DNA of 64,000 bases from an uncultured Actinomycetes bacterium (GTDB taxonomy: Bacteria > Actinomycetota > UBA4738 > HRBIN12). Location of the stretch: positions 2,624,001 through 2,688,000 of the forward strand of contig OY969934.1 in NCBI GenBank assembly GCA_963704725.1. Direction: 5' to 3'. Position numbers and translations under genes: made by a program. Under the pieces are notes generated by a model. That model worked only from the letters and a program-made list of their open reading frames with translations. It was not told the origin of the DNA and did not search any database. Shown one piece after another: positions 8,685-62,252 of this stretch (position 1 is its first letter; the number at the start of each line of letters is the position of its first letter).

Positions 8685-11210
8685 TCAGTCGCGCGCGGCA
8701 GCGAACACGGCGCCGTCTGCGCCGATCACGGAGTCCTGTGAACTGTTGCGGTGCAATTCATACGTGGTGGTGCGTTGCACGGGGACCCTGCCGATCGAGC
8801 GGATCGCCTCGTCGAACTCGCGCGCCTCCATGCTGATCCCCCACTCCGCGCCCGCCATCCGGCTGATCGTCTCCTCCATGAGCGTTCCGCCGAAATCGTT
8901 GGCTCCGCCCTGCAGGATGACCTTCGAAGCCTCGACGCCGAGCTTGACCCACGACACCTGAACGTTGTGGATAACTCCGTCGAGCAGCACGCGGGCCACC
9001 GCGTGCATCCGGCGGCTCTCGGCGAACGTCGCCCCCGGCCGGGCCCTGCCGGCGAGGTAGATCGGCGCGTTCTGATGGACGAACGGCAGCGGCACGAACT
9101 CCGTGAACCCCCCCGTGTCCCCTTGGATGCGCGCGATGCGCCGGATGTGGAAAACCCAGTGAGGCGGCGCGTCCACGTGCCCGTACATGATCGTCGACGA
9201 GCTGCGGATGCCCAGGCCGTGGGCGGTGCGGACGATCTCCTCCCACGTGTCCGCGGGCAGCTTGCCCTTCGTCAGGAGCCACCGGACGTCGTCATCCAGG
9301 ATCTCGGCGGCGGTCCCCGGGATCGTTCCCAGCCCGTGACGACGGCACTCCTGGAGGAACTCCGCGAACGAGACGCCGAGCTTGGTCGATCCGTTCAGGA
9401 TCTCCATGGGGCTGAACGCGTGGATGTGGATATCCGGCGCGGCGCCTTTGACCGCGTCCAGGAGGTCGAAGTAGAAGGTCCCGGGCAGGTCCGGGTGGAT
9501 CCCGCCCTGCATGCAGACCTCCGTCGCGCCGACCGCCACGGCCTCCCGCGTCCGCTCCGCGACCTCGTCGAGCGTGAGCGTGTAGCTCTCCGCGTCGACC
9601 TCGCGCTGGGCGAACGCGCAGAAGCGACACCCGACGTAGCAGACGTTCGTGAAGTTGATGTTCCGGTTCACGACGTAGGTGACGGCATCGCCGACGGCCT
9701 CGCGGCGCAGGTCGTCCGCGACCCGGCACAGGTGTTCGAGCGCCGCTCCCTCCGCGCGGAACAGCGCCAGGGCCTCGTCGTCCGAGATCGCCTCGTGGCG
9801 TTCGGCCTTGCGCAGCGCCGTCCGGATCTCGTCGTCGATGCGCTCCGGCGCGACGCGGGCGCTCGACCAGTCGCGGGTTACGTCCACGCCGGCCAGGTCG
9901 CCGTAGACGACCTCCGCGTCCGCACGCAGGCCCGCCGTCGCGCCCTTGGCGAACGTGAGCTCGGTCGACCGCGGCTTCCACTGGACGTCGGGGTCCTGCC
10001 ACGGCACCGGCTCCGCCACCCTCCCCGCGACGGCGAGCCCGTCCTCGCCCATGAGCGCGGCCACCGGCGCTCGCATCTTGCCGGCGAGGAACGGATCCGG
10101 GCGGCGGGCGAAGCCGGGGTGGATCGTCAGCCGCTCCCGGAGCTCGAGGCCGCGCTGGGCCGTGCGTGAGCCGAGCGCCTCGATCGCCGGCCACGGCCGC
10201 TCCGGGTTCACGTGGTCCGGGGTGAGGGGCGAGACCCCGCCCCAGTCGTCGATCCCCGCGTCTAGGAGCCGGAGCTGTCCGGGCGGGTCGGACAGGTTCG
10301 GCGGGGCCTGGACGGTCATCCTCGGCCCGAGCACGATGCGCGCCGTCGCGACGGCCGCCAGGTACAACTCCTCCTCCGGCGGCGGCGTCCGGTGCATCGC
10401 CGTGCCGGCCTTCGGGAGGAAGTTCTGGACGATGACCTCCTGCACGTGCCCGTACCGGCGGTGGACGTCTCGGATCGCGAACAGCGACTCCGCGCGCTCG
10501 CGAGCCGTCTCGCCGATGCCGACGAGGATCCCGGTCGTGAACGGGATGGCCAGCCGCCCCGCGTCCTCGATCGTGCGCAGCCGGACGGCCGGCACCTTGT
10601 CCGGGGAGCCGAAGTGCGGCCCGCCGCGCCGCGAGAGACGATCGGACGACGTCTCGAGCATGAGGCCCATCGACGCGCTCACGTGCTTGAGGCGGGCCAG
10701 GTCCTCGTACGACATGACCCCCGGGTTCAGGTGCGGCAGGAGGCCCGTCTCCTCGATCACGCGGATGGCGACGGCGCGCACGTAATCCAGGGTCGAGGCG
10801 TGGCCACGGGAAGACAGCCACTCCCGCGCCACCTCGTACCGGTCCTCGGGCCGGTCGCCCAGGGTGAACAGTGCCTCCTTGCATCCCATCCGGCGACCGC
10901 CCTCGGCGATCGCGACGGCCTCCTCCGGCGACAGGAACGGGGCGTCGAGCCGGGCGGGGGGCTTCGCGAACGTGCAGTAGTGGCAGTGGTCTCGGCACAG
11001 CATCGTCAGGGGGACGAAGACCTTGCGGGAGTAGGTGACGGTGGTCCCGTGTCCGAGATCGCGGAGCCGCGCGGCCACCGCCATGAGCTCGTCGAGCTGC
11101 TCCCCCCGAGCCTGCAGGAGCGCCCCGGCTTCGTCGACGGACAGCGGCTTCCCGGCCTCCGCGCGAGCGATCGCGCGATGCACGGCGCGAGGGTTCGCGG
11201 GCGCGGCCAT
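8685..11210 (-). CDS. fbiC: bifunctional FO synthase (CofG-CofH fusion)
   Basis: Two radical SAM motifs CRDHCHYC and CYVGCRFC; GGTLMEETISRMAG. Confidence 0.96.
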   Translation of the reverse strand: MAAPANPRAVHRAIARAEAGKPLSVDEAGALLQARGEQLDELMAVAARLRDLGHGTTVTYSRKVFVPLTMLCRDHCHYCTFAKPPARLDAPFLSPEEAVAIAEGGRRMGCKEALFTLGDRPEDRYEVAREWLSSRGHASTLDYVRAVAIRVIEETGLLPHLNPGVMSYEDLARLKHVSASMGLMLETSSDRLSRRGGPHFGSPDKVPAVRLRTIEDAGRLAIPFTTGILVGIGETARERAESLFAIRDVHRRYGHVQEVIVQNFLPKAGTAMHRTPPPEEELYLAAVATARIVLGPRMTVQAPPNLSDPPGQLRLLDAGIDDWGGVSPLTPDHVNPERPWPAIEALGSRTAQRGLELRERLTIHPGFARRPDPFLAGKMRAPVAALMGEDGLAVAGRVAEPVPWQDPDVQWKPRSTELTFAKGATAGLRADAEVVYGDLAGVDVTRDWSSARVAPERIDDEIRTALRKAERHEAISDDEALALFRAEGAALEHLCRVADDLRREAVGDAVTYVVNRNINFTNVCYVGCRFCAFAQREVDAESYTLTLDEVAERTREAVAVGATEVCMQGGIHPDLPGTFYFDLLDAVKGAAPDIHIHAFSPMEILNGSTKLGVSFAEFLQECRRHGLGTIPGTAAEILDDDVRWLLTKGKLPADTWEEIVRTAHGLGIRSSSTIMYGHVDAPPHWVFHIRRIARIQGDTGGFTEFVPLPFVHQNAPIYLAGRARPGATFAESRRMHAVARVLLDGVIHNVQVSWVKLGVEASKVILQGGANDFGGTLMEETISRMAGAEWGISMEAREFDEAIRSIGRVPVQRTTTYELHRNSSQDSVIGADGAVFAAARD

Positions 11211-11281
11211 CGGCTCGCGAGCGTATCACCGTACTGTCGTCGCCTTGCGCCCACCCCCGGGTGGACCGCACACTCCGGGCG

Positions 11282-12619
11282 ATGACCCCTCCGGAGACCC
11301 GGTACGCGAAGAGCGGCGACGTGCACGTCGCCTACCAGGTCTTCGGGCAGGGCCGGCTCGACCTCGTCTTCGTCGCCGAGTTCTGGAACTCGATCGAAGC
11401 CATGTGGGAGCAGGCGGACTATCGCCGCTGCCTCGAACGCCTCAGCTCGTTCGCCCGGGTGATCTGTCTCGACCAGCGAGGGACCGGGTCCTCGGACCCC
11501 GTCTCGCTGTCGGAGCTCCCCACGCTCGAGGTGTGGGCGGACGACGTGATCGCCGTGATGGAAGCCGTGGGGTCCGAACGGGCGGCGCTGCTCGGATCGG
11601 GAGGGGGCGGCGGCGTGAGCATGCTCTTCGCGGCGACCTTCCCCGAGCGCGTGCGGGCGCTCGTCCTGGTGAACTCGACGGCCCGGTACACGCGCGCGCC
11701 CGATTACCCCGTCGGGACCTCGCCCGAGTTCGAGGCGCGCATCGAGAAGGAGCTCGAGTTCGGATGGGGCCGGGGCGTGCTGCTCGAGACGGTCGGCCCG
11801 AGCGTGGCGCACGACGCCGGGTTCCGGACGTGGTGGGGCCGGTACCAGCGCCTGGGGTCGACCCCCGGCGTCGTCCGGGCCACCCGCCACATGCTGCAGC
11901 AGCTCGACGTCCGCGACGTCCTGCCCTCGATCCGCGTCCCGACCCTGATCGTGCACCGCTCGGACAACCGGCTCGTCGACGTCCGGCACGGCCGGTACCT
12001 GGCGGAGCGCATCCCCGGAGCGCGCTACGTCGAGCTGCCGGGCGACGACTACCTGTGGTTCGTCGGCGATGCCGACGCGATCTTGGACGAGGTCGAGGAG
12101 TTCCTGACGGGCTCGCGCCGAAGCCCGGGGTCGGACCGGGTCCTCGCGACCGTGCTGTTCACCGATGTCGTGGGGTCCACGGAGCGCGCGGCCTCGCTCG
12201 GGGACGCGGCGTGGCGGGACCTCCGCGCCGCGCACGACGACATCGTGCGGGCCGAGCTCGCACGCCACCGCGGCCGGGAGATCGACACCGCCGGCGACGG
12301 CTTCCTCGCCACGTTCGACGGGCCCGCCCGCGCCGTCCGATGCGCGTGCGCGATCCGCGACGGCGTCCGGGCGATCGGCCTGGAGATCCGGGTCGGGCTC
12401 CACACGGGCGAGGTCGAGATCGTCGGCGATCGGATCGCCGGCATCGCCGTCCACATCGGCGCCCGGGTCGCGGCCGGCGCCGAGCCCGGCCAGGTGCTGG
12501 CGTCGAGTACCGTCAGGGATCTGGTGGCGGGATCGGGCATCGAGTTCGAGGACCAGGGCTCGCACGAGCTGAAGGGCGTTCCCGGGGAGTGGCGACTGTT
12601 CGCGGTGACGAGGCCGTGA
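11282..12619 (+). CDS. alpha/beta-hydrolase-fold + class III nucleotidyl cyclase (LipJ-like)
   Basis: TRYAKSGDVHVAYQ, DQRGTGSSD; VLFTDVVGST, GDGF, GLHTGE. Confidence 0.9.
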   Translation: MTPPETRYAKSGDVHVAYQVFGQGRLDLVFVAEFWNSIEAMWEQADYRRCLERLSSFARVICLDQRGTGSSDPVSLSELPTLEVWADDVIAVMEAVGSERAALLGSGGGGGVSMLFAATFPERVRALVLVNSTARYTRAPDYPVGTSPEFEARIEKELEFGWGRGVLLETVGPSVAHDAGFRTWWGRYQRLGSTPGVVRATRHMLQQLDVRDVLPSIRVPTLIVHRSDNRLVDVRHGRYLAERIPGARYVELPGDDYLWFVGDADAILDEVEEFLTGSRRSPGSDRVLATVLFTDVVGSTERAASLGDAAWRDLRAAHDDIVRAELARHRGREIDTAGDGFLATFDGPARAVRCACAIRDGVRAIGLEIRVGLHTGEVEIVGDRIAGIAVHIGARVAAGAEPGQVLASSTVRDLVAGSGIEFEDQGSHELKGVPGEWRLFAVTRP

Positions 12620-13557
12620 GGGTCCTCTCGCTCGCCGGCGGGATCGGCGCGGGCAAGTTCCTCCGCGGCCTCGTCCGCGTGGTCCCGCCGGCGGACGTCA
12701 CCGTGGTCGTGAACACGGGCGACGACGTCGTGATGCACGGTCTGCACGTCTCTCCCGACCTCGACTCCGTCACCTACTGGCTCGGTGACGCGTTCGACCG
12801 GGAGCGGGGATGGGGACGGCGGGGGGAGACGTTCCGGGCCACCGAGGAGCTCCGAGCGTTCGATCCCGAGCTCGCGTGGTTCAACCTCGGGGACCTCGAC
12901 CTGGCGACGCACCTCTACCGGACCAACCGCCTCGGCTCGGGGGCGACGCTCACCGACGTCACCGCGGGGATCGCCGAGCGGTTCGGCGTGGGCGCGCGGC
13001 TGCTGCCGATGTCGGATGAGGCGGTGACCACTCGCGTCACGGTGGTGAAAGACGGGGAGGAGACCGACCTCCACTTCCAGGAGTACTGGGTGCGCCGCGG
13101 CGCACGGGACGAGGTGAAGTCCGTGCGCTACGAGGGCGCACCTCGGGCCCGGCCGGCCCCCGGCGTGCTCGAGGCGATCGCGGACGCCGACGCCATCGTG
13201 CTCTGCCCCTCCAACCCCGTCGCATCGCTCGGTCCGATCCTGTCCGTTCCCGGGATCCGGGAGGCCCTGGCCCGAAGGAGCGATCGCGCCGTCGGGATCA
13301 GCGGGATCGTCGGCGGCGCTCCGCTCGCCGGGATGGCGGACAAGCTGATGCCGGTGGCGGGCGTCGAGGTGACCGCGGCCGGCGCGGCCGAGTGCTACGA
13401 CGGCCTGCTCGCGGCGTGGGTGATCGACGAGGCCGATCGAGGGCTCGCGCCGAGGATCGAGGCGGCCGGCGTCCGCGTCGGCGTGACCGACACGATCATG
13501 ACCGACGACGCGAAGGCGGAGGCGCTGGCGCGGCTCGCGCTGCAGCTCCTGTCGTGA
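12616..13557 (+). CDS. fbiA: 2-phospho-L-lactate transferase
   Basis: LAGGIGAGKF, NTGDD, SPDLD, HFQEYWV, PSNP motifs. Confidence 0.95.
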   Translation: MRVLSLAGGIGAGKFLRGLVRVVPPADVTVVVNTGDDVVMHGLHVSPDLDSVTYWLGDAFDRERGWGRRGETFRATEELRAFDPELAWFNLGDLDLATHLYRTNRLGSGATLTDVTAGIAERFGVGARLLPMSDEAVTTRVTVVKDGEETDLHFQEYWVRRGARDEVKSVRYEGAPRARPAPGVLEAIADADAIVLCPSNPVASLGPILSVPGIREALARRSDRAVGISGIVGGAPLAGMADKLMPVAGVEVTAAGAAECYDGLLAAWVIDEADRGLAPRIEAAGVRVGVTDTIMTDDAKAEALARLALQLLS

Positions 13558-14843
13558 CGATCCGCGTCCTGCCCGTCGAGGGTCTTCCGGAGGTTCGGCC
13601 CGGGGACGACCTCGCGGCGATGCTCTCGCCGGCGCTCTCGGCGCTCGGCGTGCGCGAGCGGGACGTCGTCGTGGTCACGCAGAAGGTCGTTTCGAAGGCG
13701 GAGGGTCGCATCGTGCCCGAGGAGGGCGAGGGCCGGGCCGCGTGGGTCGAGCGCGAGACGCGACGCGTGGTGGCCCGTCGGGACGACCTCGTGATCGCGG
13801 AGACCGAGCACGGCTTCGTCTGCGCGAACGCCGGCGTCGACGCCTCGAACGTCGAGGCCGGCTTCCTCACGCTCCTGCCCGCCGACCCGGACGGCTCGGC
13901 CGACCGGCTCCGCTCCGCCCTGCGGGACCGGCTCGGGGTGGACGTCGGCGTCGTGGTGACCGACACGTTCGGCCGGGCGTGGCGCCGGGGCCTCGTCAAC
14001 GTCGCGATCGGCTGCGCCGGCCTGCCCGCGCTCGTCGACCTGCGCGGGACGAAGGACCACGAGGGCCGCGAGCTCGAGGTGACGGTCGTGGCGCTCGCCG
14101 ACGAGGTGGCCGCGGCGAGCGGCCTGGTGATGGGCAAGGCCGCCCGCGTGCCGGTCGCGGTGGTGCGTGGGCTCGACGTCGCGGCGCCGCCGGTGCCGGC
14201 ACGGGAGCTGGTGCGGCCGCCGGAGGAAGACCTCTTCCGCGAGTCGCCGCTGCTGTCGATCTCGGCGCGGCGCACGATCCGATCCTTCGGCGAGGGCGGC
14301 GTCCCTCGTGCGGCCGTCGAGGAGGCGGTGCGAGCCGCCGGCACCGCACCCTCGCCCCACGGCTCCACGCCGTGGTCGTTCACGGCGGTCGTGTCATCGG
14401 CGGCGAAGCGCCGGCTCGTCGCCGCGGTGGCCGAGGCGTGGCGGGCGGACCTCGAACGCGACGAGATCCCTCCGGGCGAGATCGAGCACCGCGTGGGCAG
14501 GAGCGAGGCCCTCCTCGGCGGGGCGCCGGTGCTCGTGGTCCCGTGGGTCCGGTTCGAGGCGATGCACCGCTACCCGGACGCCGAGCGGTCGCATGCCGAG
14601 CAGGAGCTGTTCCTGCTGTCATCGGGCGCCGCGATCCAGAACCTGTTGCTGGCGTTCCACGCGCAGGGCTACGGCTCTTGCTGGACGCCCACGACGTTGT
14701 TCTGCCAGGAGGAGGCGAGGGAGGCCCTCGGCATGCCGGCGGGGTGGTTCGCGCTCGGGACGGTGGCGGTCGGCCCGATGCCGAAGGGCGTCCCGCCCCC
14801 GCGACCGCCGCTCGACCTCGGGACGTTGCTGTCGGAGCGGTGA
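13554..14843 (+). CDS. fbiB: F420-0:gamma-glutamyl ligase with C-terminal nitroreductase domain
   Basis: KVVSKAEG, ANAGVDASN, DTFGRAWR; RRTIRSF/APSPH nitroreductase domain. Confidence 0.94.
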   Translation: MTIRVLPVEGLPEVRPGDDLAAMLSPALSALGVRERDVVVVTQKVVSKAEGRIVPEEGEGRAAWVERETRRVVARRDDLVIAETEHGFVCANAGVDASNVEAGFLTLLPADPDGSADRLRSALRDRLGVDVGVVVTDTFGRAWRRGLVNVAIGCAGLPALVDLRGTKDHEGRELEVTVVALADEVAAASGLVMGKAARVPVAVVRGLDVAAPPVPARELVRPPEEDLFRESPLLSISARRTIRSFGEGGVPRAAVEEAVRAAGTAPSPHGSTPWSFTAVVSSAAKRRLVAAVAEAWRADLERDEIPPGEIEHRVGRSEALLGGAPVLVVPWVRFEAMHRYPDAERSHAEQELFLLSSGAAIQNLLLAFHAQGYGSCWTPTTLFCQEEAREALGMPAGWFALGTVAVGPMPKGVPPPRPPLDLGTLLSER

Positions 14844-31177: not shown

Positions 31178-31942
31178 GTGACCGAGGATCACGTGCTCGC
31201 GAACCGCGCCACCTGGGACGCCGACGCCCCGAACTGGGTCGAACGCGGGCGGGCCTCCTGGGCCGGCGAGCCCGCCTGGGGCATCTGGCAGGTGCCCGAG
31301 TCCGAGCTCGGGCTCCTGCCCGACGTGGACGGGCTCGACTGCGTCGAGCTGGGGTGCGGGACCGGCTACGTCTCGGCCTGGCTGGCGCGCCTGGGCGCCC
31401 GGCCCGTCGCGCTCGACAACTCCGGGCAGCAGCTGGCGACGGCGAGACGGCTCCAGGAGGAGTTCGACCTGCGGTTCCCCCTCGTGCACGCCAGCGCCGA
31501 GCGACCGCCCTTTCGAGACGAGCGCTTCGACCTCGCCGTGTCCGAGTACGGCGCGGCGATCTGGTGCGACCCGTACGTGTGGATCCCGGAGGCGGCACGG
31601 ATCCTGCGACCGGGCGGGCGTCTCGTGTTCCTGGGCAACTCCTACGTGGCGATGCTCACGTTCCCCGACGTGGGCCCCGCGACCGAGACCCTGCAGCGCG
31701 ACCACTTCGGGATGCACCGTTTCGAGTGGCCGGACGCGGAGGGCGCGGTGGACTTCCACATCACCCATGGGGCGATGATCCGGCTGCTCCGCTCGTCCGG
31801 GTTCGAGGTCGAGGACCTCGTCGAGATCCGGGCGCCGGAGGACGCCCTCGGGGCGAGCCCCCCGACCGATCCGCTGGCCACGGCGGACTGGAGCCGGCGA
31901 TGGCCGATCGAGGAGGCCTGGCTGGCGCGGAGGCGTGACTGA
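31178..31942 (+). CDS. class I SAM-dependent methyltransferase
   Basis: VELGCGTG, FDLAVSEYGA, RILRPGG; TATCGT -10 lies 7 nt before the GTG. Confidence 0.9.
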   Translation: MTEDHVLANRATWDADAPNWVERGRASWAGEPAWGIWQVPESELGLLPDVDGLDCVELGCGTGYVSAWLARLGARPVALDNSGQQLATARRLQEEFDLRFPLVHASAERPPFRDERFDLAVSEYGAAIWCDPYVWIPEAARILRPGGRLVFLGNSYVAMLTFPDVGPATETLQRDHFGMHRFEWPDAEGAVDFHITHGAMIRLLRSSGFEVEDLVEIRAPEDALGASPPTDPLATADWSRRWPIEEAWLARRRD

Positions 31943-32134: not shown

Positions 32135-32428
32135 GTGCCCCGGACGCGGAGCGACGTCCTCGCGCTGGACATGGGCGACGGGGTCATCCTCTACGACCAG
32201 CACTCGAGCCTGGTTCATCACCTGAACCCCTCGGCGTCGGTCCTGTGGAACCTGTGCGACGGGGAGGCGGACGGCACCGAGCTGGCCGCCGAGATCGCCG
32301 AGGCGTTCGGGCTGGATCGCGACGCCGTCGCGGCTCAGGTCGAGGGCTTCATCCAGGAGCTGGACGCGCTCGGGCTCATCGAGGACGCCGGCGGGGCCGA
32401 GAGGCCGACCGCGACGGACGGCTCGTGA
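32135..32428 (+). CDS. PqqD family peptide chaperone / RiPP recognition element
   Basis: ILYD...VHHLNPSASVLWNLCDG...IAEAF...FIQELDALGLI; start may lie further upstream. Confidence 0.9.
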   Translation: MPRTRSDVLALDMGDGVILYDQHSSLVHHLNPSASVLWNLCDGEADGTELAAEIAEAFGLDRDAVAAQVEGFIQELDALGLIEDAGGAERPTATDGS

Positions 32429-32451
32429 GCCCGGAGGAGGGGGAGCCGACG

Positions 32452-32862
32452 ATGGACTCGAGGGATGGGGAGCTGAAGCGGCGCGACTTCCTGCGCCGGG
32501 CCGCCGTGACGGGGATGGCCGCGGCGTGGGCGGCGCCGGTCATCCAGACGGTCGCGGCGACCCCGGCGTTCGCGCAGACCCAGGGGAGCCCCCCGTCCGA
32601 CGGCGGCTGCTTCCACTCGACGGGGACGAACGGCGGCTGCATGCCCGCCTGCGCGGACCTCGCCGGCTGCGGCGGGAACCAGTGCGGCGGCAACAACCCG
32701 AACAGCGCGAACGGGCCGTGCACCGCGTACTGCCCGCCGGGAGCGGGCGGCGGCAACCCGTGCTGCAACCCCGGCCTGTGCGACCCGGCCAACTTCACGT
32801 GCAGCACGTCCCAGAACGGCGTGGCGACGTACAACGGGTCGCTGGCCGGCTGCGCCGGCTGA
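32452..32862 (+). CDS. Tat-signal Cys-rich peptide, candidate RiPP-like precursor (136 aa)
   Basis: SD GGAGGAGG; KRRDFLRR; AWAAPVIQTV; PAFA cleavage site; Gly/Asn-rich core with 12 Cys. Confidence 0.85.
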   Translation: MDSRDGELKRRDFLRRAAVTGMAAAWAAPVIQTVAATPAFAQTQGSPPSDGGCFHSTGTNGGCMPACADLAGCGGNQCGGNNPNSANGPCTAYCPPGAGGGNPCCNPGLCDPANFTCSTSQNGVATYNGSLAGCAG

Positions 32863-32879
32863 ACACGAGCGGCGGACCG

Positions 32880-32907
32880 AGAGCGGCGGGCGTTCGCCCG
32901 CCGCTCT
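32880..32907. terminator. hairpin between convergent precursor and kinase genes
   Basis: AGAGCGGCGGGC-GTTC-GCCCGCCGCTCT perfect stem. Confidence 0.7.
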
Positions 32908-32913
32908 TGCGCG

Positions 32914-33789
32914 TCAGCCCGGAGGGAATCGCTCGTCCAGGAGCTCGGCCCGCTCCGGTGGGGTCCCTCCGGCCAGCTCGAACGCCTCGGCCCGCTCCGC
33001 GACCCGCGAGAGCAGGATCACCCCCCGCTCCGCGTACCGGTACAGGTTCGTCGAGTGCGCGGCCATCCGCTCGACCGCACCGGCCCGGGTGACCGGCGTG
33101 AGCCGCGGGGGGCCCACACGATCCTCCCCGATGAACACGATCCATCGGGGGTCCGTCGGCCCCGCGACCGTCGCGCCGAGGTCCTCCGGGCGCACGTGCC
33201 TGGTGGGGAGCCCGGCGCCGAGCCCCCCGCGGTCCTCGAGGCGCTCGTGCAGGTCTCCGAAGAACGCGAGCGCCTCGTCGTCGACCGCGATCCGCCGCTC
33301 GAACGGATGGATGCGCCCGGTGACGGGATCGATCGCTCCAAGCTCGTCCGACAGGTACGAGAACCCCCGCCGAAGGAGGCCGAGGACGAGCGAGGACTTG
33401 CCCACGTCCGGCCGGGCCGGCAGGAGCATCGCCTCACCCCTCCGCTCGACGGCCCCGGCGTGGATCAGGACGAAGTCGCGGGTGCGGGCCGAGACCTCCG
33501 CGTGCAGCAACCACACGGCGTGCGCGAGAACGCCGCTCAGGTCGTGCTGCGTATAACGGAGCGCGTTCCCCACGAACAGCGAGTACAGGGGCGGGTCGGC
33601 TCCGATGTCCTGCTCCTGCACGTACAGGTCGACGGGGAAGGCCGAGACCTCCGGCGTCGCCCGGCGGAACGGCGCGAGGTGCCAGGCCAGCGCCTCGGCG
33701 AAGCCCTCGTCCGTGGATCGGACGGTGAACGAGAGCGACAGCATCCGGTAGTGATCCTCTGCGACCCAGCCCGGGTCGAAGTCGTCCAC
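32914..33789 (-). CDS. HprK-related kinase
   Basis: IHAGAV, Walker A ARPDVGKSS, YLSDE, HPFER. Confidence 0.82.
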   Translation of the reverse strand: MDDFDPGWVAEDHYRMLSLSFTVRSTDEGFAEALAWHLAPFRRATPEVSAFPVDLYVQEQDIGADPPLYSLFVGNALRYTQHDLSGVLAHAVWLLHAEVSARTRDFVLIHAGAVERRGEAMLLPARPDVGKSSLVLGLLRRGFSYLSDELGAIDPVTGRIHPFERRIAVDDEALAFFGDLHERLEDRGGLGAGLPTRHVRPEDLGATVAGPTDPRWIVFIGEDRVGPPRLTPVTRAGAVERMAAHSTNLYRYAERGVILLSRVAERAEAFELAGGTPPERAELLDERFPPG

Positions 33790-33844
33790 TCAGCCGCCGC
33801 CCGACCGCACCGGCGCTCGCTCGTCCGCCACCTCGCTCACCCCC

Positions 33845-34711
33845 TCACTCGTGCTCTGTCGCCGTGGTCACGAGGAGCTCGGCGGCCTCCGGGATCGACC
33901 CCACGACCAACGTGGCCACCGGCACGGAACCCAGGAGGTCCTGCATGACGAGGAACGCCCGGTCCGTCCAGATGTGCAGGTTGAGGAGGGCCTGGGTGAA
34001 CCGGAACAGCGCCTCGGCGCGCCCGATCTCCTGCAGCTCCGTGGGGCGGCCGGGCGCGAACGTGGGGAACACGATCCACCCCGGGAGCGTCGGCTCGGCC
34101 GCCGCCCCCCGGAACTCCTCGATCCGGACGGGCCGCCGGGGCGTCCTCGCCCCCAGCCTGTCGGGATCGGCGAGCAGCGTCAGGCGCCGCCGCCCCGGCG
34201 CCCGCCCCAGCTCGGGGAACAGACCGATGTCCGTGGTGTCGATCAGCAGCGGCAGGACCGAGCCGTGCGCCCGGCGCAGCACCGGGTCCAGGCTCACGAG
34301 CTCGTCGCCCAAGTAGCCCGCGCCGCGGCGAACCATCGCCCCCACGAGCGCGGGCAGGTGCGGCTCGGGAACCGAGGGCAGCAGCAGCGCCCGCTTCCCG
34401 ATCGCCACGCCGCCGGCGCGGACCCGGATGTACTCGTTCGAGTGCTGCGTCGCGAGGTCGCGGACCCCGGAGATGATCCGGCCGGCCATCTCGTCCCGGT
34501 CGACCCCTTCGAAGATCTTCAGCGCACCGATGTACAGGCGGCTCTTGCCCCGGACGACCTTTCCGCCGGCGAGCACGGTGTCCGGACCGACGTCCGCCGA
34601 GAAGTGATTGACGGCTTCGGCCCGCTCCACGCGGAACGCGCGCAGGTGGGCGCGCAGGAGCTCCAGGAAGCTCTCGTCGGTGGCGCGCACGGTGAAGCCG
34701 AGGGCGTCCAC
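33845..34711 (-). CDS. HprK-related protein with degenerate Walker A (pseudokinase)
   Basis: Paralogous to the neighbour (FTVR, AGGV, YLGDE, WIVF) but no GKS; homology extends upstream toward ATG 34792 across an in-frame TGA. Confidence 0.72.
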   Translation of the reverse strand: MDALGFTVRATDESFLELLRAHLRAFRVERAEAVNHFSADVGPDTVLAGGKVVRGKSRLYIGALKIFEGVDRDEMAGRIISGVRDLATQHSNEYIRVRAGGVAIGKRALLLPSVPEPHLPALVGAMVRRGAGYLGDELVSLDPVLRRAHGSVLPLLIDTTDIGLFPELGRAPGRRRLTLLADPDRLGARTPRRPVRIEEFRGAAAEPTLPGWIVFPTFAPGRPTELQEIGRAEALFRFTQALLNLHIWTDRAFLVMQDLLGSVPVATLVVGSIPEAAELLVTTATEHE

Positions 34712-34855
34712 CGTGTAGTGATCCGTAGCGACCCAACCTAGCCGCTCGAGCTCGGCCTCTCAGTCGGTGCGCGGTCGGCGTTCCTCGACCATCCGGCCCC
34801 CTGCCCCGTCTCGTCGTGACGAACGCGGGTCACAGTAGCAAGCTGCGCCCGGTGG

Positions 34856-36220
34856 TCAGCTCGACGGCGCCCAGATGGGTCCGACGCAGTCGTCGCGCAG
34901 GGGGAGCACGGCCGGCCGTCGTGGCTCCCGATCGAAGTCGAAGGCCGACAGGAGGGGCGTCGCGTCGCGATCGCGATGGGTGAGCTGGGTGAGGCCCCAA
35001 TTGTCCTCGATGAAACGTAGCACGCTCGAGAACTCCCCCAGCTCGCTCGAGACCAGGCCCTGCTTGGCGTACGGGCTGATCAGGAGCATCGGGACGCGGA
35101 TCCCGAAGCCGAACTGGTCGACCTGAGGCGGCGGGACGTGGTCGTAGAAGCCCCCGTAGTCGTCCCACGTGAGGAAGATCGCGGTGTCCTTCCACATGGG
35201 CGAGCGCATGATCGCGTCGATGACCTTCGTGCTCCAGTTCTCGCCGTGGCAGAAGTTGAACTCCGGATGCTCGGACAGCTCGAATCGCGGCGTGATCCAC
35301 GTGACGGGCGGCAGCAGCCCCGCCCGGATGTCGTCGATCACGTTGTCGACCGGGTAGATGTGCCGCTGCCAGCGATCGGGATGCATGCGATACCGGTGGA
35401 TCGCGCTGTACGCGGACCAGATGTACCCGCGCTGGTCCTCCTGCGCCGCGTAGTACGCCCACGGGATGCTCGAGCGCGTGAGCAGGTCGCCCTCGGTGAG
35501 GAAGTCGAAGCAGGGCGCGACCATCTTGATCTTGCCCTCGCTGTCGTGCACCTCGACGAGCTGCTGGGCCGGGGCGTCGCACCCGAACGTGTTCGAGCCG
35601 CGGGTCGAGGGGAGGCTCCGTCGCGGGTTGTCGACCGCACCGCCCGAGGTGGCCGCGATCGAGTAGAGGTGGTTGGGGAACGACGGCCCCTGGGCGCTGG
35701 CGAAGAAGTTGTCGAACAGCACGAAGTCCTGGGCCCACGTCCAGTAGTTGGGGAGCTGGTCGCGGACGAGCTGCGAGTACGCCCACTCGGGGTTCTCGCC
35801 CTGCCAGAACCCGTCCATCGCGCCCTCGTTCCAGGCCTCGAGCGCGCACTGGTAGCAGTGTGGCAGGTCACCCGGCAGCCGCCCGTCGGTGCCCGGGATG
35901 AGGGGCCACGCCCGCCCGTCTCGCCGCCCCACGCTCACGCCGTTCGCACCGGGGAACGTGCCGAACAGGTTGTCGAACGTCCGGTTCTCCTTGATCAGGA
36001 ACACCACGTGCTTGATGGGGAACTCGGTCGGCAGCGAGCCGGCATCGAAGGCCTCGGGCGCCCCCGTCGTGATCACGCTCGGACTCGCCGACGCCGAGGG
36101 GGAGGCGGAGGGCGACCGCTGCGAAGCGTCGTCGCCGCCGTCGCAGGCCGCCGCGACCAGCGCGAGGGCGAGGAGGACGGCCGCCCAGCGAAGGGCGCGC
36201 GGGCTACGGGGGTGCCGCAT
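34856..36220 (-). CDS. phosphoesterase (phospholipase C family) lipoprotein
   Basis: Lipobox AAAC; [40 protein letters not shown]. Confidence 0.9.
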
Positions 36221-55324: not shown

Positions 55325-56695
55325 TCACTGCACGACGAGCGCGGTGACCATCCCGAACATGCCCTGCGGCCCCTCCACGTGCGGCAGGATGTGGCAGTGG
55401 AACGCCCACACGCCGGGGTTGTCGGCGTGCACGAGCACGTCGAACCGCTGGCCGGGGGCGACCATGATCGTGTCGGCCAGGTACCGGTTGGCCCGACTGA
55501 ACGCGTAGCCGTCCTCGGCGACCACCTCGAAATGGAAGCCGTGCAGGTGCATGGGGTGGATCATCGCGCCGTCGTTCGCGATGTGGATCAGCACGTCGTC
55601 GCCGAGCTGGGCCACGATCGGCTGGGTCGCGGGGAAGCCCTTGCCGTTGAGCACGTAGCCGAACGGGCCGTCGCCGAGGAACAGCGTGCTCTCCACCTCG
55701 ACCTTCTGGCCGTAGACGGAGCTCCAGTCGCCGTTCGGCGGATCCACGTAGAGCGCGCCGTACAGACCCTTGCCCACCTGCTCGGTCGAATTGAAGTGGG
55801 AGTGGTAGACGTACATCCCCGGCGGATCCACGATCGGGAACTCGTACGTGAAGAAGCCGCCCGGCAGGATGGGATCCTGCGTGATGTAGGGCACCCCGTC
55901 CATGTCGTTCGGCACTTCGAGACCGTGGAAGTGGACGGTGGTGGGCTGCGACATCTCGTTGCGCACCACGATCCGGACCTTGTCGCCCTGGTTCACGTGG
56001 ATCTCGGGGCCGGGGACGGTCCCGTTGAAGCCCATGGCGTCCACGAAGACGCCCGGGGAGGTCTCCCATCGGACCTCCTGGACCGTGAGCTCGAAGACCT
56101 TGACGCCGTTCTCGATCGTGGGCTCGAGGACCTGGTTGCCTTGGCCCTGCGTCTGGGCGGGGAACGCCTCCATCGCCGCGCGGTGGCCGTCGAGCATCTC
56201 CTGGCTGCTCATCCCGGCATGCGAGCTCATCCCGGGCATCGAGCCCGAGGAGCCGGAGGCCCCGCTCGCACCGGCCGCCACCACGCCTCCGGAGGAGACG
56301 GTCAGCGAGCCGACCATCCCGAGGTCGGCGTGGCCGGCGATCGTGCAGGAGTAGCGGTAGTCGCCCGCGTCGAGCCCCGCGACCTGGAGCGTCTGCGTCT
56401 CGCCGGGCTGCAGCTCGCGGGTCTGCTCGACGCCGCTCCCCGTGTCGACGGCGAAGGTATGGGCGGCCGTGCCGTCGTTCGAGACGTCGAACGACAGGGT
56501 CTGCCCGGAGGGCGCGTCGATGTGGGCCGGTGTGATCGCGAACTCGGTGAGCGAGACGGCGAACGAGGCCGGCGCCGCCTGGGTACCGTCGCCCTCCTGC
56601 GTCCCTCCCCCGTCACCGCCGCACGCCCCGGCCGCCAGCATCAGCACCGCGGCCGCGGCCCCGACCGCGAACGCCTGGACCCGCCTCGTCGTCAT
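55325..56695 (-). CDS. lipoprotein: cupredoxin domain + two-domain multicopper oxidase
   Basis: AAGAC lipobox; H..CTIAGHADLGM; HFHG, YHSH, HPMHLHG, HCHILPH. Confidence 0.88.
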   Translation of the reverse strand: MTTRRVQAFAVGAAAAVLMLAAGACGGDGGGTQEGDGTQAAPASFAVSLTEFAITPAHIDAPSGQTLSFDVSNDGTAAHTFAVDTGSGVEQTRELQPGETQTLQVAGLDAGDYRYSCTIAGHADLGMVGSLTVSSGGVVAAGASGASGSSGSMPGMSSHAGMSSQEMLDGHRAAMEAFPAQTQGQGNQVLEPTIENGVKVFELTVQEVRWETSPGVFVDAMGFNGTVPGPEIHVNQGDKVRIVVRNEMSQPTTVHFHGLEVPNDMDGVPYITQDPILPGGFFTYEFPIVDPPGMYVYHSHFNSTEQVGKGLYGALYVDPPNGDWSSVYGQKVEVESTLFLGDGPFGYVLNGKGFPATQPIVAQLGDDVLIHIANDGAMIHPMHLHGFHFEVVAEDGYAFSRANRYLADTIMVAPGQRFDVLVHADNPGVWAFHCHILPHVEGPQGMFGMVTALVVQ

Positions 56696-56765
56696 CGAGC
56701 GTCTCCTTCCGTCGTGCGTCCATCGCATGGCGGTAGATGCAACGAGATCGGGAGCGACGCGCTGA

Positions 56766-58503: not shown

Positions 58504-58551
58504 GGGCCGAACGACCGCCTCTCGGCACGTCCGGCATGGGTCGAACGGCCC
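58504..58551. promoter_or_regulatory. tandem DosR-like boxes upstream of PFOR
   Basis: GGGCCGAACGACCG and GGGTCGAACGGCCC. Confidence 0.55.
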
Positions 58552-58622
58552 CGGTCCGCCCATCTCCGTCGCGCAAGCATGGGTCGAGACTCTGCAGGTA
58601 TGGCGATCACGGGGTGAGGTGG

Positions 58623-62248
<3,626 letters not shown>

Positions 62249-62252
<4 letters not shown>

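Follow-up and report, generated by a model that had tools for sequence, protein, structure and literature searches.

The stretch of DNA analysed here (the window, 64,000 nucleotides of contig OY969934.1 from an uncultured Actinomycetes bacterium) contains a four-gene cassette at positions 32135–34711. The cassette consists of a stand-alone gene for a PqqD-family RiPP recognition element (RRE; RiPP, ribosomally synthesised and post-translationally modified peptide), a gene for a 136-amino-acid (aa) precursor with a twin-arginine translocation (Tat) signal and 12 Cys residues, a hairpin, and two convergent HprK-like genes, K1 and K2. The host genome is a single contig of 3.45 Mb with a G+C content of ~72%. 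The features of the cassette are as follows.

32135–32428, + strand: stand-alone PqqD-family RRE, 97 aa (PF05402, TIGR04353).
32433–32445, + strand: purine-rich Shine-Dalgarno sequence GGAGGAGGGGGAG preceding the precursor gene, read from the sequence.
32452–32862, + strand: precursor gene, 136 aa, with a Tat-type leader (residues 1–41) and a 95-aa core with 12 Cys.
32479–32484, + strand: twin arginines R10-R11 in KRRDFLRR; RR is invariant in 31 of 31 leaders.
32527–32544, + strand: W26-A-A-P29-V-I31, candidate RRE-binding motif in the hydrophobic region of the signal; this W and this P are shared by all 31 leaders.
32566–32574, + strand: A39-F-A41, predicted signal peptidase I site, with A-x-A nearly invariant; the core begins Q42-T-Q-G-S46-P47.
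32871–32919: terminator-like bidirectional hairpin with a perfect 14-bp G+C-rich stem, between the convergent gene pairs.
32914–33789, − strand: K1, HprK-related kinase with intact motifs (P-loop GKS, residues 130–132, at 33391–33417); TIGR04352, 88.6 bits.
33845–34711, − strand: K2, degenerate HprK-like paralogue and probable pseudokinase partner; TIGR04352, 58.4 bits.

The stop codon of the PqqD gene is separated from the ATG of the precursor gene by 23 nt, and the Shine-Dalgarno sequence GGAGGAGG is located 7–15 nt 5' of the precursor start. These positions and the family scores agree with the original prediction, which had been made from the letters of this stretch, that a stand-alone PqqD gene lies directly upstream of a 136-aa Cys-rich peptide with a Tat signal. 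The convergence of these genes, across a hairpin, on two paralogous HprK-like genes is likewise confirmed: the hairpin at 32871–32919 folds with −38.8 kcal/mol (z −4.37; none of 200 shuffles is as stable), and K1 and K2 are 33% identical. A simple terminator and promoter scan lists no signal, the hairpin included, because the hairpin does not contain a T-run. The open reading frame (ORF) of the precursor has a G+C content at third codon positions (GC3) of 0.98. An antisense ORF at 32376–32834, in which GC3 is likewise high, was discarded in favour of the + frame, for which databases contain 93 homologues that share the leader and the Cys framework. No Pfam domain is assigned to them, and their fullest label is ‘twin-arginine translocation signal domain-containing protein’. 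Radical SAM, YcaO, lasso cyclase and leader protease genes are absent from the cassette, as the original prediction had claimed, and also from 109 neighbouring ORFs of 16 related loci.

The signal of the precursor is composed of KRRDFLRR, an Ala/Gly/Thr-rich hydrophobic stretch, and A-F-A followed by Q. When 31 leaders are aligned, only two Arg, one Trp and one Pro are invariant, and their spacing is nearly fixed in the order RR, 14–15 residues, W-x-x-P-x-[I/V/L/A], ~10 residues and A-x-A. Such sequence conservation in the hydrophobic region of a signal is unusual and suggests that this region has a specific binding partner. The cores behind these leaders are unrelated and 60–190 aa long; among them are the 10–14-Cys domain of the window type, further Cys-rich peptides, beta-type domains of 190 aa and a single core that lacks Cys. 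According to the text of a recent paper on linear polyphosphorylated peptides (LPPs) (PMC13381572), [Y/W]xxPx[L/V/I/A/F/Y] is the motif to which most discrete lasso RREs bind, and WAAPVI of the precursor leader matches this motif of lasso and LPP RREs. The fit of the W-x-x-P-x-[I/V] stretch to a published RRE-binding motif supports the earlier claim that the precursor bears a leader recognised by an RRE. In a sub-clade of the precursor family, YAAPIV replaces WAAPVI. Database homologues P0064–P0076 keep the Cys-rich core, but their signal is a different one (TRRTVVATGAKLAYAAPIVAASFK), in which the Trp of the x-x-P motif is exchanged for Tyr, and a Lys-rich tail is frequent among them. The leader also heads a cargo of ~190 aa in loci L060 and L067 (and in the unpublished L054 and L063), which starts with A-W-A-Q-x-Y and has Cys at both ends; its middle part is repetitive and hydrophobic. 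The occurrence of the same leader on this different cargo suggests that it is a module common to unrelated secreted proteins. The host genome encodes TatC (210.9 bits).

The PqqD protein scores 53.9 bits against PF05402 (cut-off 23.4), 46.8 bits (E 4.3e-12) against TIGR04353, ‘HPr-rel-A system PqqD family peptide chaperone’, of which the cut-off is 35, and 36 bits against NF033530, a model of lasso PqqD proteins of the Streptomyces type. In databases, its homologues already bear the name ‘PqqD family protein of HPr-rel-A system’. When its profile is compared with the PDB, two lasso RREs, TbiB1 (5v1u, E 2.3e-8) and TfuB1 (6jx3, E 3.9e-7), come first among the solved chains, ahead of PqqD itself. 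Thus, the searches with profile hidden Markov models (HMMs), which had been proposed as a check, and the nearest solved chains both indicate that this protein is an RRE similar to lasso B1. Two genomes of the same family encode a PqqD domain in one chain with a thioredoxin-fold domain similar to ResA/TlpA/MauD (L045, 7263–8069, − strand; L047, 4160–4888, − strand). These gene fusions hint that the RRE is tied to a Cys-rich client.

The motifs of the kinase-like proteins were compared in an alignment of 24 HprK-like proteins from the host genome and its relatives. K1 keeps His110, the Walker-A G-K-S and Asp148-Glu149, and shares H-A-G-A, D-x-G-K-[ST] and Y-L-S-D-E with K3, another HprK-like protein of the host genome. 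H110, G130, K131, D148 and E149 are each at least 90% conserved in 77 K1 homologues; the best score among these homologues against TIGR04352, when scanned, is no better than E 5e-49. By sequence, the match of K1 to PF07475 has only E 0.092, and HprK chains are matched marginally (E 0.016–0.03) in a PDB profile search with the K1 alignment. The K1 model has a predicted local distance difference test score (pLDDT) of 96.7, and its residues 104–291 superpose on HprK/P with Z 12.3–12.6 by VIA-align (1ko7, Z 12.6, root mean square deviation 2.8 Å over 129 residues; 1jb1, Z 12.5). The whole chain superposes on ATP-dependent phosphoenolpyruvate carboxykinase (PEPCK) 1ii2 with Z 14.9 over 277 residues, and the top 50 Foldseek matches of the model are PEPCK chains only. 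The motifs and the model make K1 a credible P-loop kinase with an HprK/PEPCK-type fold.

In K2, Arg takes the place of the His residue and S-V-P-E-P-H-L-P-A that of the P-loop; Y-L-G-D-E is retained. The P-loop is replaced by P-x-P-H-L-P-A-L in four of five aligned K2 orthologues and by P-R-L-P-A-L in the fifth, and none of them contains G-K-[ST]. The tandem K2-K1 pair is conserved among relatives, and K2 is missing from 2 type-A loci, both in genome G009. A fourth HprK-like type, KC, has lost all kinase motifs. K2 is most likely a non-catalytic pseudokinase partner of K1, because its His residue and P-loop are lost. The original prediction of two kinases is thus correct for K1, by motifs and fold, but not for K2, so that only one of them looks active.

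The distribution of the leader was examined in the host genome and its relatives. The leader HMM matches 3 of 39,977 ORFs of the host genome at E ≤ 0.01, each at most ~1 kb from K1 or K3, the HprK-like genes with a P-loop, and does not match the ordinary Tat substrates of this genome. A leader ORF is located within ~2 kb of an HprK-like gene in all 16 loci fetched from relatives, which are all from published genomes, and in both host-genome loci with a P-loop HprK-like gene; 13 of these 18 leader-bearing loci are independent of the leader HMM. At the level of genomes, 61 relatives were searched with a profile of 31 leaders (A5). The matches fall into two distinct groups: 32 are full-length, score 40 bits or more and come from 18 of the 61 genomes, and the rest are short and cover the RR region of large ordinary proteins. 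A K1 homologue is present in 14 of the 61 relatives (one of them unpublished), all within the 18 leader-positive genomes, and in none of the 43 leader-negative ones. When the unpublished genomes G011 and G059 are excluded, a K1 homologue remains in 13 relatives, which all belong to the 16 that are then leader-positive; the leader-negative count is unchanged, because both excluded genomes are leader-positive. In G058, one of the remaining leader-positive genomes, the neighbours of the leader gene are three genes for PqqD proteins and two that are kinase-like and divergent. The co-occurrence on which the original prediction had been made to depend is therefore observed.

Two layouts are distinguished. 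In one, the PqqD and precursor genes converge on K1, with or without K2 (the window and L038–L043), and in the other, the precursor gene is followed by K3, with or without KC and PqqD (L044–L053). Across the phylum, HprK_rel_A-like genes are found in 45 of 401 sampled genomes, five unpublished ones included. When 18 further loci of the phylum (new, published and non-duplicate) were inspected with 1.5-kb flanks, the leader was detected at E ≤ 1e-5 in 10 and weakly in 2. Because the leader profile is specific, all of its matches are adjacent to kinase genes and K1 occurs only in leader-positive relatives, the association is not due to chance, and the four cassette genes are very probably linked in function.

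The core of the window type contains seven invariant Cys in 88 sequences, and four further columns (two Cys, and the His and Ser of C-x-H-S) are at least 90% conserved. The number of Cys is even (10, 12 or 14) in all 75 type-A cores that are parsed by pattern among 94 sequences, the other 19 being unparsed and left out, and in 29 of 30 cores across other loci. Cys residues are thus gained or lost in pairs, as would be expected for disulfides. The predicted mature part starts with Q-T-x-G-[S/T]-P; in the type-A cores, [ST] is found at core position +5 in 62 of 75 and P at +6 in 58 of 75. T43, S46, S49 and S56 are candidate phosphorylation sites, and the C-terminus of the precursor is not a conserved Ser. 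The core model has a pLDDT of 76–94. Its best match in the PDB has Z 2.2, which amounts to no match and does not by itself prove that the fold is novel; a search of the ESM Atlas with the core gives no usable match.

On one flank of the cassette are genes for a SAM methyltransferase, two GT1 glycosyltransferases and a Wzm/TagH-type ABC exporter, and on the other those for a lipoprotein-type phosphoesterase, rmlD, rmlB, a glycosyltransferase and rmlA. The related loci are mostly within surface-glycan clusters with CapD-like, DegT, GT4 and Wzy_C genes and LuxR regulators. The four-gene core is also found away from glycan genes, beside those for Pup ligase and PafBC in L038 and beside ribosomal genes and SecY in L045, and its persistence in these settings suggests that the four genes form a unit of their own. 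The methyltransferase gene (31226–31942) and the phosphoesterase gene (34856–36220) were considered as further members and rejected, because neither is conserved beside the cassette in other loci. The phosphoesterase, a PF04185 protein (phospholipase C/acid phosphatase family), carries a signal of the lipoprotein type (LVAAAC), and its gene shares the − strand with K2, from which it is separated by 144 nt on the upstream side; alkaline-phosphatase-superfamily genes are also located near the cassettes of L049 and L051. Farther away in the window are F420 genes at 8688–14840 (bifunctional CofGH/FbiC at 8688–11210 and FbiB/CofE at 13392–14840, with a LipJ-like lipase/cyclase gene between them), which are ordinary for Actinomycetota; a gene for single-chain pyruvate:ferredoxin oxidoreductase at 58536–62249 (+ strand; TIGR02176, 1748 bits), which is unusual for an aerobic-type actinobacterium; and a multicopper-oxidase-like gene at 55328–56728 (− strand).

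The host genome (G000) contains further copies of the cassette genes. K3 (2837952–2838878; TIGR04352, 115.5 bits) is located directly downstream of a gene for a 126-aa Cys-rich Tat precursor. This second system (G000:C1:2837952-2840561; L008, 8177–11561) is composed of a DegT aminotransferase gene, the 126-aa precursor gene, K3, and a convergent gene for a 245-aa leader-bearing Tat protein, which ends in collagen-like G-x-T repeats with weak SclA/SclB-type matches. At G000:C1:2872322-2873790 (L010, 7322–8803), KC is followed by two tandem PqqD genes, which score 54.1 and 41.1 bits against TIGR04353, both above the cut-off. LuxR-type response regulator genes and a CapD-like gene adjoin this locus. 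The second system seems to be divided between two sites 35 kb apart, because KC, PqqD, K3 and the precursor are together in L045 and L047. The sole NTP_transf_5 (PF14907) gene of the genome (2859952–2860680) is located 204 kb from the cassette, directly downstream of a fourth PqqD gene; no NTP_transf_5 nucleotidyltransferase is found among the cassette genes or the 109 ORFs of the 16 related loci. The locus of this fourth PqqD gene (G000:C1:2859952-2861015; L009, 7667–9639) is upstream of a Wzm/Wzt ABC pair and has a sulfotransferase-like gene nearby.

The closest characterised system is that of the LPPs (lppA-K-B-S-D-N) of Bacillota (Nat Commun 2026;17:6633; PMC13381572). As described in the text of this paper, the HprK-like kinase LppK polyphosphorylates core Ser3 of RRE-bound precursors of 35–200 aa that have a conserved YxxP leader. 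The LPPs are said there to be restricted to Bacillota; the supplements of the paper (domain co-occurrence, taxa) may hold examples from other phyla. Like the LPP system as it is described there, the cassette combines a discrete lasso-type RRE with an HprK-like kinase and no lasso cyclase, its precursors have a conserved N-terminal [Y/W]xxPx[L/V/I] and variable C-termini, leader removal is by a signal-peptidase-I-type enzyme (predicted for the cassette), and the genes are located in capsule or polysaccharide loci with a patchy phyletic distribution. It differs from that system in that it is found in Actinomycetota instead of Bacillota, and in that a complete Tat signal (RR...WxxPx[IV]...AxA) takes the place of a dedicated SipW-like peptidase, LppS, and an MsbA-like pump. 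Because the Tat signal is complete, export presumably proceeds through Tat and cleavage is presumably by the housekeeping signal peptidase. The ABC genes nearby are only of the Wzm/Wzt (ABC-2/TagH) type. The cassette also has a degenerate kinase paralogue and a conserved 95-aa core with 12 Cys in addition, and its motif contains Trp in place of the Tyr of the LPP motif, without the longer LPP consensus YxxPxVLxHQxIxFETxxS. The text of the LPP paper (PMC13381572) mentions neither Tat nor twin-arginine.

A second comparison is with HPr-rel-A, a system that is named in NCBIfam/TIGRFAMs (TIGR04352 and TIGR04353) and uncharacterised; no literature that uses these names was found. The PqqD protein exceeds the TIGR04353 cut-off, and TIGR04352 is the best family for both K1 and K2, but their 88.6 and 58.4 bits fall short of the TIGR04352 cut-off of 200, and the cassette has no nucleotidyltransferase. 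The phosphorylated lasso peptides of the paeninodin type are made by a precursor, B1 RRE, B2, C and an HprK-like kinase (Zhu et al. 2016, as cited in PMC13381572), and resemble the cassette, as far as that text describes them, in the B1-like RRE, in an HprK-like kinase that acts on an RRE-bound precursor, and in the [Y/W]xxPx[L/V/I] leader motif. They differ from it in their macrolactam synthetase and B2 protease, neither of which is found in the cassette or the rest of the host genome: PF13471 (lasso B2) gives only two sub-threshold matches inside ORFs of 839–1144 aa, and PF00733 (lasso cyclase) only two short partial matches 1.3–2 Mb away. The substrate is also a peptide of ~20 aa in the paeninodin type and a 95-aa disulfide-type domain here, in which the C-terminal Ser is not conserved.

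The PqqD protein resembles the Tat proofreading chaperones of the TorD/DmsD/NapD family in that it is small and cytoplasmic and would be expected to bind a twin-arginine signal before export. Its winged-helix PqqD/RRE fold is unrelated to theirs, it is paired with a kinase, and a role in cofactor insertion is not evident for it. A literature search, with subscription journals outside its range, finds no work that links the twin-arginine or Tat signal with PqqD or RRE, the co-mentions being incidental as judged by titles and abstract openings; the RRE-Finder literature does not mention HPr or kinase. The original prediction of a novel system was thus overstated, because HPr-rel-A is already named in NCBIfam and the LPP family is in print, but the Tat-signal leader, the pair of kinase and pseudokinase, and the lack of the transferase mark the cassette as a variant. 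It is most likely an unstudied relative of the LPP peptide family described in 2026.

These results favour, with a probability of roughly 0.55, the interpretation that the cassette is a self-contained unit for leader-guided protein modification, an actinobacterial, Tat-dependent variant of HPr-rel-A/LPP. From the observed genes, motifs, folds and co-occurrence, we infer binding, phosphorylation and its site, export, cleavage, disulfide formation and the order of these events as follows. The 136-aa precursor would be made in the cytoplasm, and its twin-arginine signal peptide would double as a RiPP-type leader. The stand-alone PqqD/RRE would bind W-x-x-P-x-[I/V] in the hydrophobic region of the signal and present the precursor to K1, which would probably be hetero-oligomeric with the degenerate K2. 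K1 would then transfer one or more phosphates from ATP to Ser/Thr of the precursor, most likely near the mature start (Q42-T43-Q-G-S46-P) by analogy with the action of LppK on core Ser3. Export would probably be delayed while the RRE holds the signal peptide; after release, the precursor would exit through Tat, signal peptidase I would cut it after A-F-A41, and the 12 Cys would form six disulfides. The original inference, that the RRE delivers the precursor to the kinase for phosphorylation ahead of Tat export, is thus partly supported and now has an analogue in print. The setting suggests that the product functions at the cell surface or in the matrix. The more specific proposal that the Tat signal itself is the RiPP leader, such that docking of the RRE both brings in the kinase/pseudokinase pair and delays Tat export until phosphate has been added to the cargo, through which glycan might be attached later, is tentative and has somewhat less than even chances.

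Several results weigh against this interpretation. The kinases are far below the TIGR04352 cut-off, which none of the 401 genomes sampled from the phylum reaches, so that an orthologous function is not assured. The precursor falls just under the cut-offs of the Tat models (TIGR01409, 15.7 against 16.7; PF10518, 13.3 against 22.7). No Ser/Thr near the N-terminus of the core is invariant, [ST]P being found within the first nine core residues behind 20 of 30 leaders. No Pfam family of a SipW-type peptidase, of the NTP transferase LppN or of an MsbA-like exporter, as known from the available text on LPPs, is found in the cassette or the 109 neighbouring ORFs. Genome G052 contains four solitary leader genes with no detectable kinase gene nearby, and a PqqD gene and a weak kinase-like match on other contigs; G006 (89% complete) contains a leader gene with neither a detectable kinase gene nearby nor a further cassette member. 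The leader is absent within 1.5 kb in 6 of the 18 further loci of the phylum. The counts overstate the independent evidence, because the genomes are related, and a search for sequencing runs with this stretch lists no RNA run and three DNA runs that share 5–7% of its words.

The structural prediction belongs with these reservations. An RRE-leader-kinase complex had been proposed for modelling; its RRE-leader part was run, with leader residues 1–60, and the result is weakly positive. The score of 0.38 (best of 3 controls, 0.00) is a pass, as was also obtained for 58 of the 80 solved complexes and for 2 of the 110 pairs that were mismatched, but scores of 0.60 or lower are obtained for only 7 of the 80 solved complexes, together with both passing mismatched pairs. 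At least 85% of the contacts agree between runs, and the pLDDT of the partner is at least 56. The model gives weak support to binding, and its score may reflect likeness or memory rather than binding, because RRE-leader complexes have already been solved.

Four other explanations were considered. In the first, phosphorylation is only the initial step, and the phosphate is then nucleotidylated or glycosylated, or serves as an attachment point for glycan, to give a phosphoglycosylated surface protein. The location of most cassettes in surface-polysaccharide loci (CapD-like, DegT, GT1/GT4, Wzy_C, Wzm/Wzt, rml) agrees with this, as do the position of the only NTP_transf_5 gene of the genome beside the fourth PqqD gene in another glycan locus, the terminal collagen-like G-x-T repeats of one leader-bearing paralogue, and the lipoprotein-type phosphoesterase gene just upstream of K2. 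There is a precedent in the phosphoglycosylated lasso peptides, and the LPP authors, in the text of their paper, predict products that are both phosphorylated and glycosylated (PMC13381572). However, neither a nucleotidyltransferase nor a glycosyltransferase belongs to the cassette itself, its core also occurs away from glycan genes (L038, L045), and its methyltransferase and phosphoesterase neighbours are not conserved in other loci. This explanation has a small but real chance of being correct.

It is unlikely, in the second place, that the PqqD protein is an export-gating chaperone in the manner of TorD, DmsD or NapD, without covalent modification, which holds the signal until the Cys-rich domain is folded or oxidised, with K1/K2 as an ATP-driven release or assembly factor. 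K1 and K3 retain the full catalytic set of HprK, of which His, G-K-[ST] and D-E reach a conservation of at least 90% among the 77 homologues, and the only characterised pairs of an RRE and an HprK-like protein, as far as the text of the LPP paper covers them, phosphorylate the bound peptide (PMC13381572). Gating would nevertheless account for the position of the RRE motif inside the signal peptide itself, for the PqqD-thioredoxin fusions of two loci, which point to folding or redox work on the client, for the degenerate K2 and KC without a P-loop, and for the lack of an invariant Ser/Thr acceptor.

The third explanation, that the substrate of K1/K2 is an intermediate (a sugar, a polyprenol or a nucleotide) in the polysaccharide pathway encoded around the cassette and that the genes for PqqD and the Tat protein are separate, is quite improbable. 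It would fit the glycan-locus setting, the weak likeness of K3 to FomB-type small-molecule kinases (E 4.6e-5) and the match of the whole K1 fold to PEPCK, a small-molecule kinase, but leader ORFs adjoin the kinase genes throughout the genome and in relatives whatever the other neighbours, the four-gene core is retained beside Pup-ligase or ribosomal genes, and PqqD/RRE has no known role in sugar metabolism. The fourth, a lanthipeptide-like route in which K1 phosphorylates Ser/Thr, K2 removes the phosphate by elimination and the resulting dehydro residue reacts with Cys to form thioether rings, is very improbable, because, although the cores are rich in Cys and Ser/Thr, K2 keeps Y-L-G-D-E and HprK/P itself catalyses phosphorolysis at its kinase site, the even Cys counts fit disulfide pairs and not Cys-Ser/Thr links, some leader-bearing cores have 0 or 2 Cys, K2 is missing from the two loci of G009, and no lyase or cyclase fold is present.

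The HPr-rel-A genes have long been named in databases without a known substrate, and the cassette offers a likely one that can be tested. Because the leader is sharply specific, with 3 matches in the whole host genome that are all adjacent to kinase genes, four genes and a mass spectrometer would suffice for a direct test of the system. If the interpretation is correct, RRE-guided phosphorylation would extend to Actinomycetota and to whole small proteins, and an export signal would do double duty as a modification leader. If the Tat signal indeed serves as the leader, there would be a class of RRE-dependent, Tat-exported modified proteins with cargos of 60–190 aa in at least a tenth of the sampled Actinomycetota, and RiPP leader recognition and Tat signal proofreading, so far separate fields, would merge. 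For the organism, the cassette points to a family of secreted, disulfide-rich miniproteins that have no known fold and are tied to surface-glycan loci, possibly with a part in the biology of the envelope or the biofilm.

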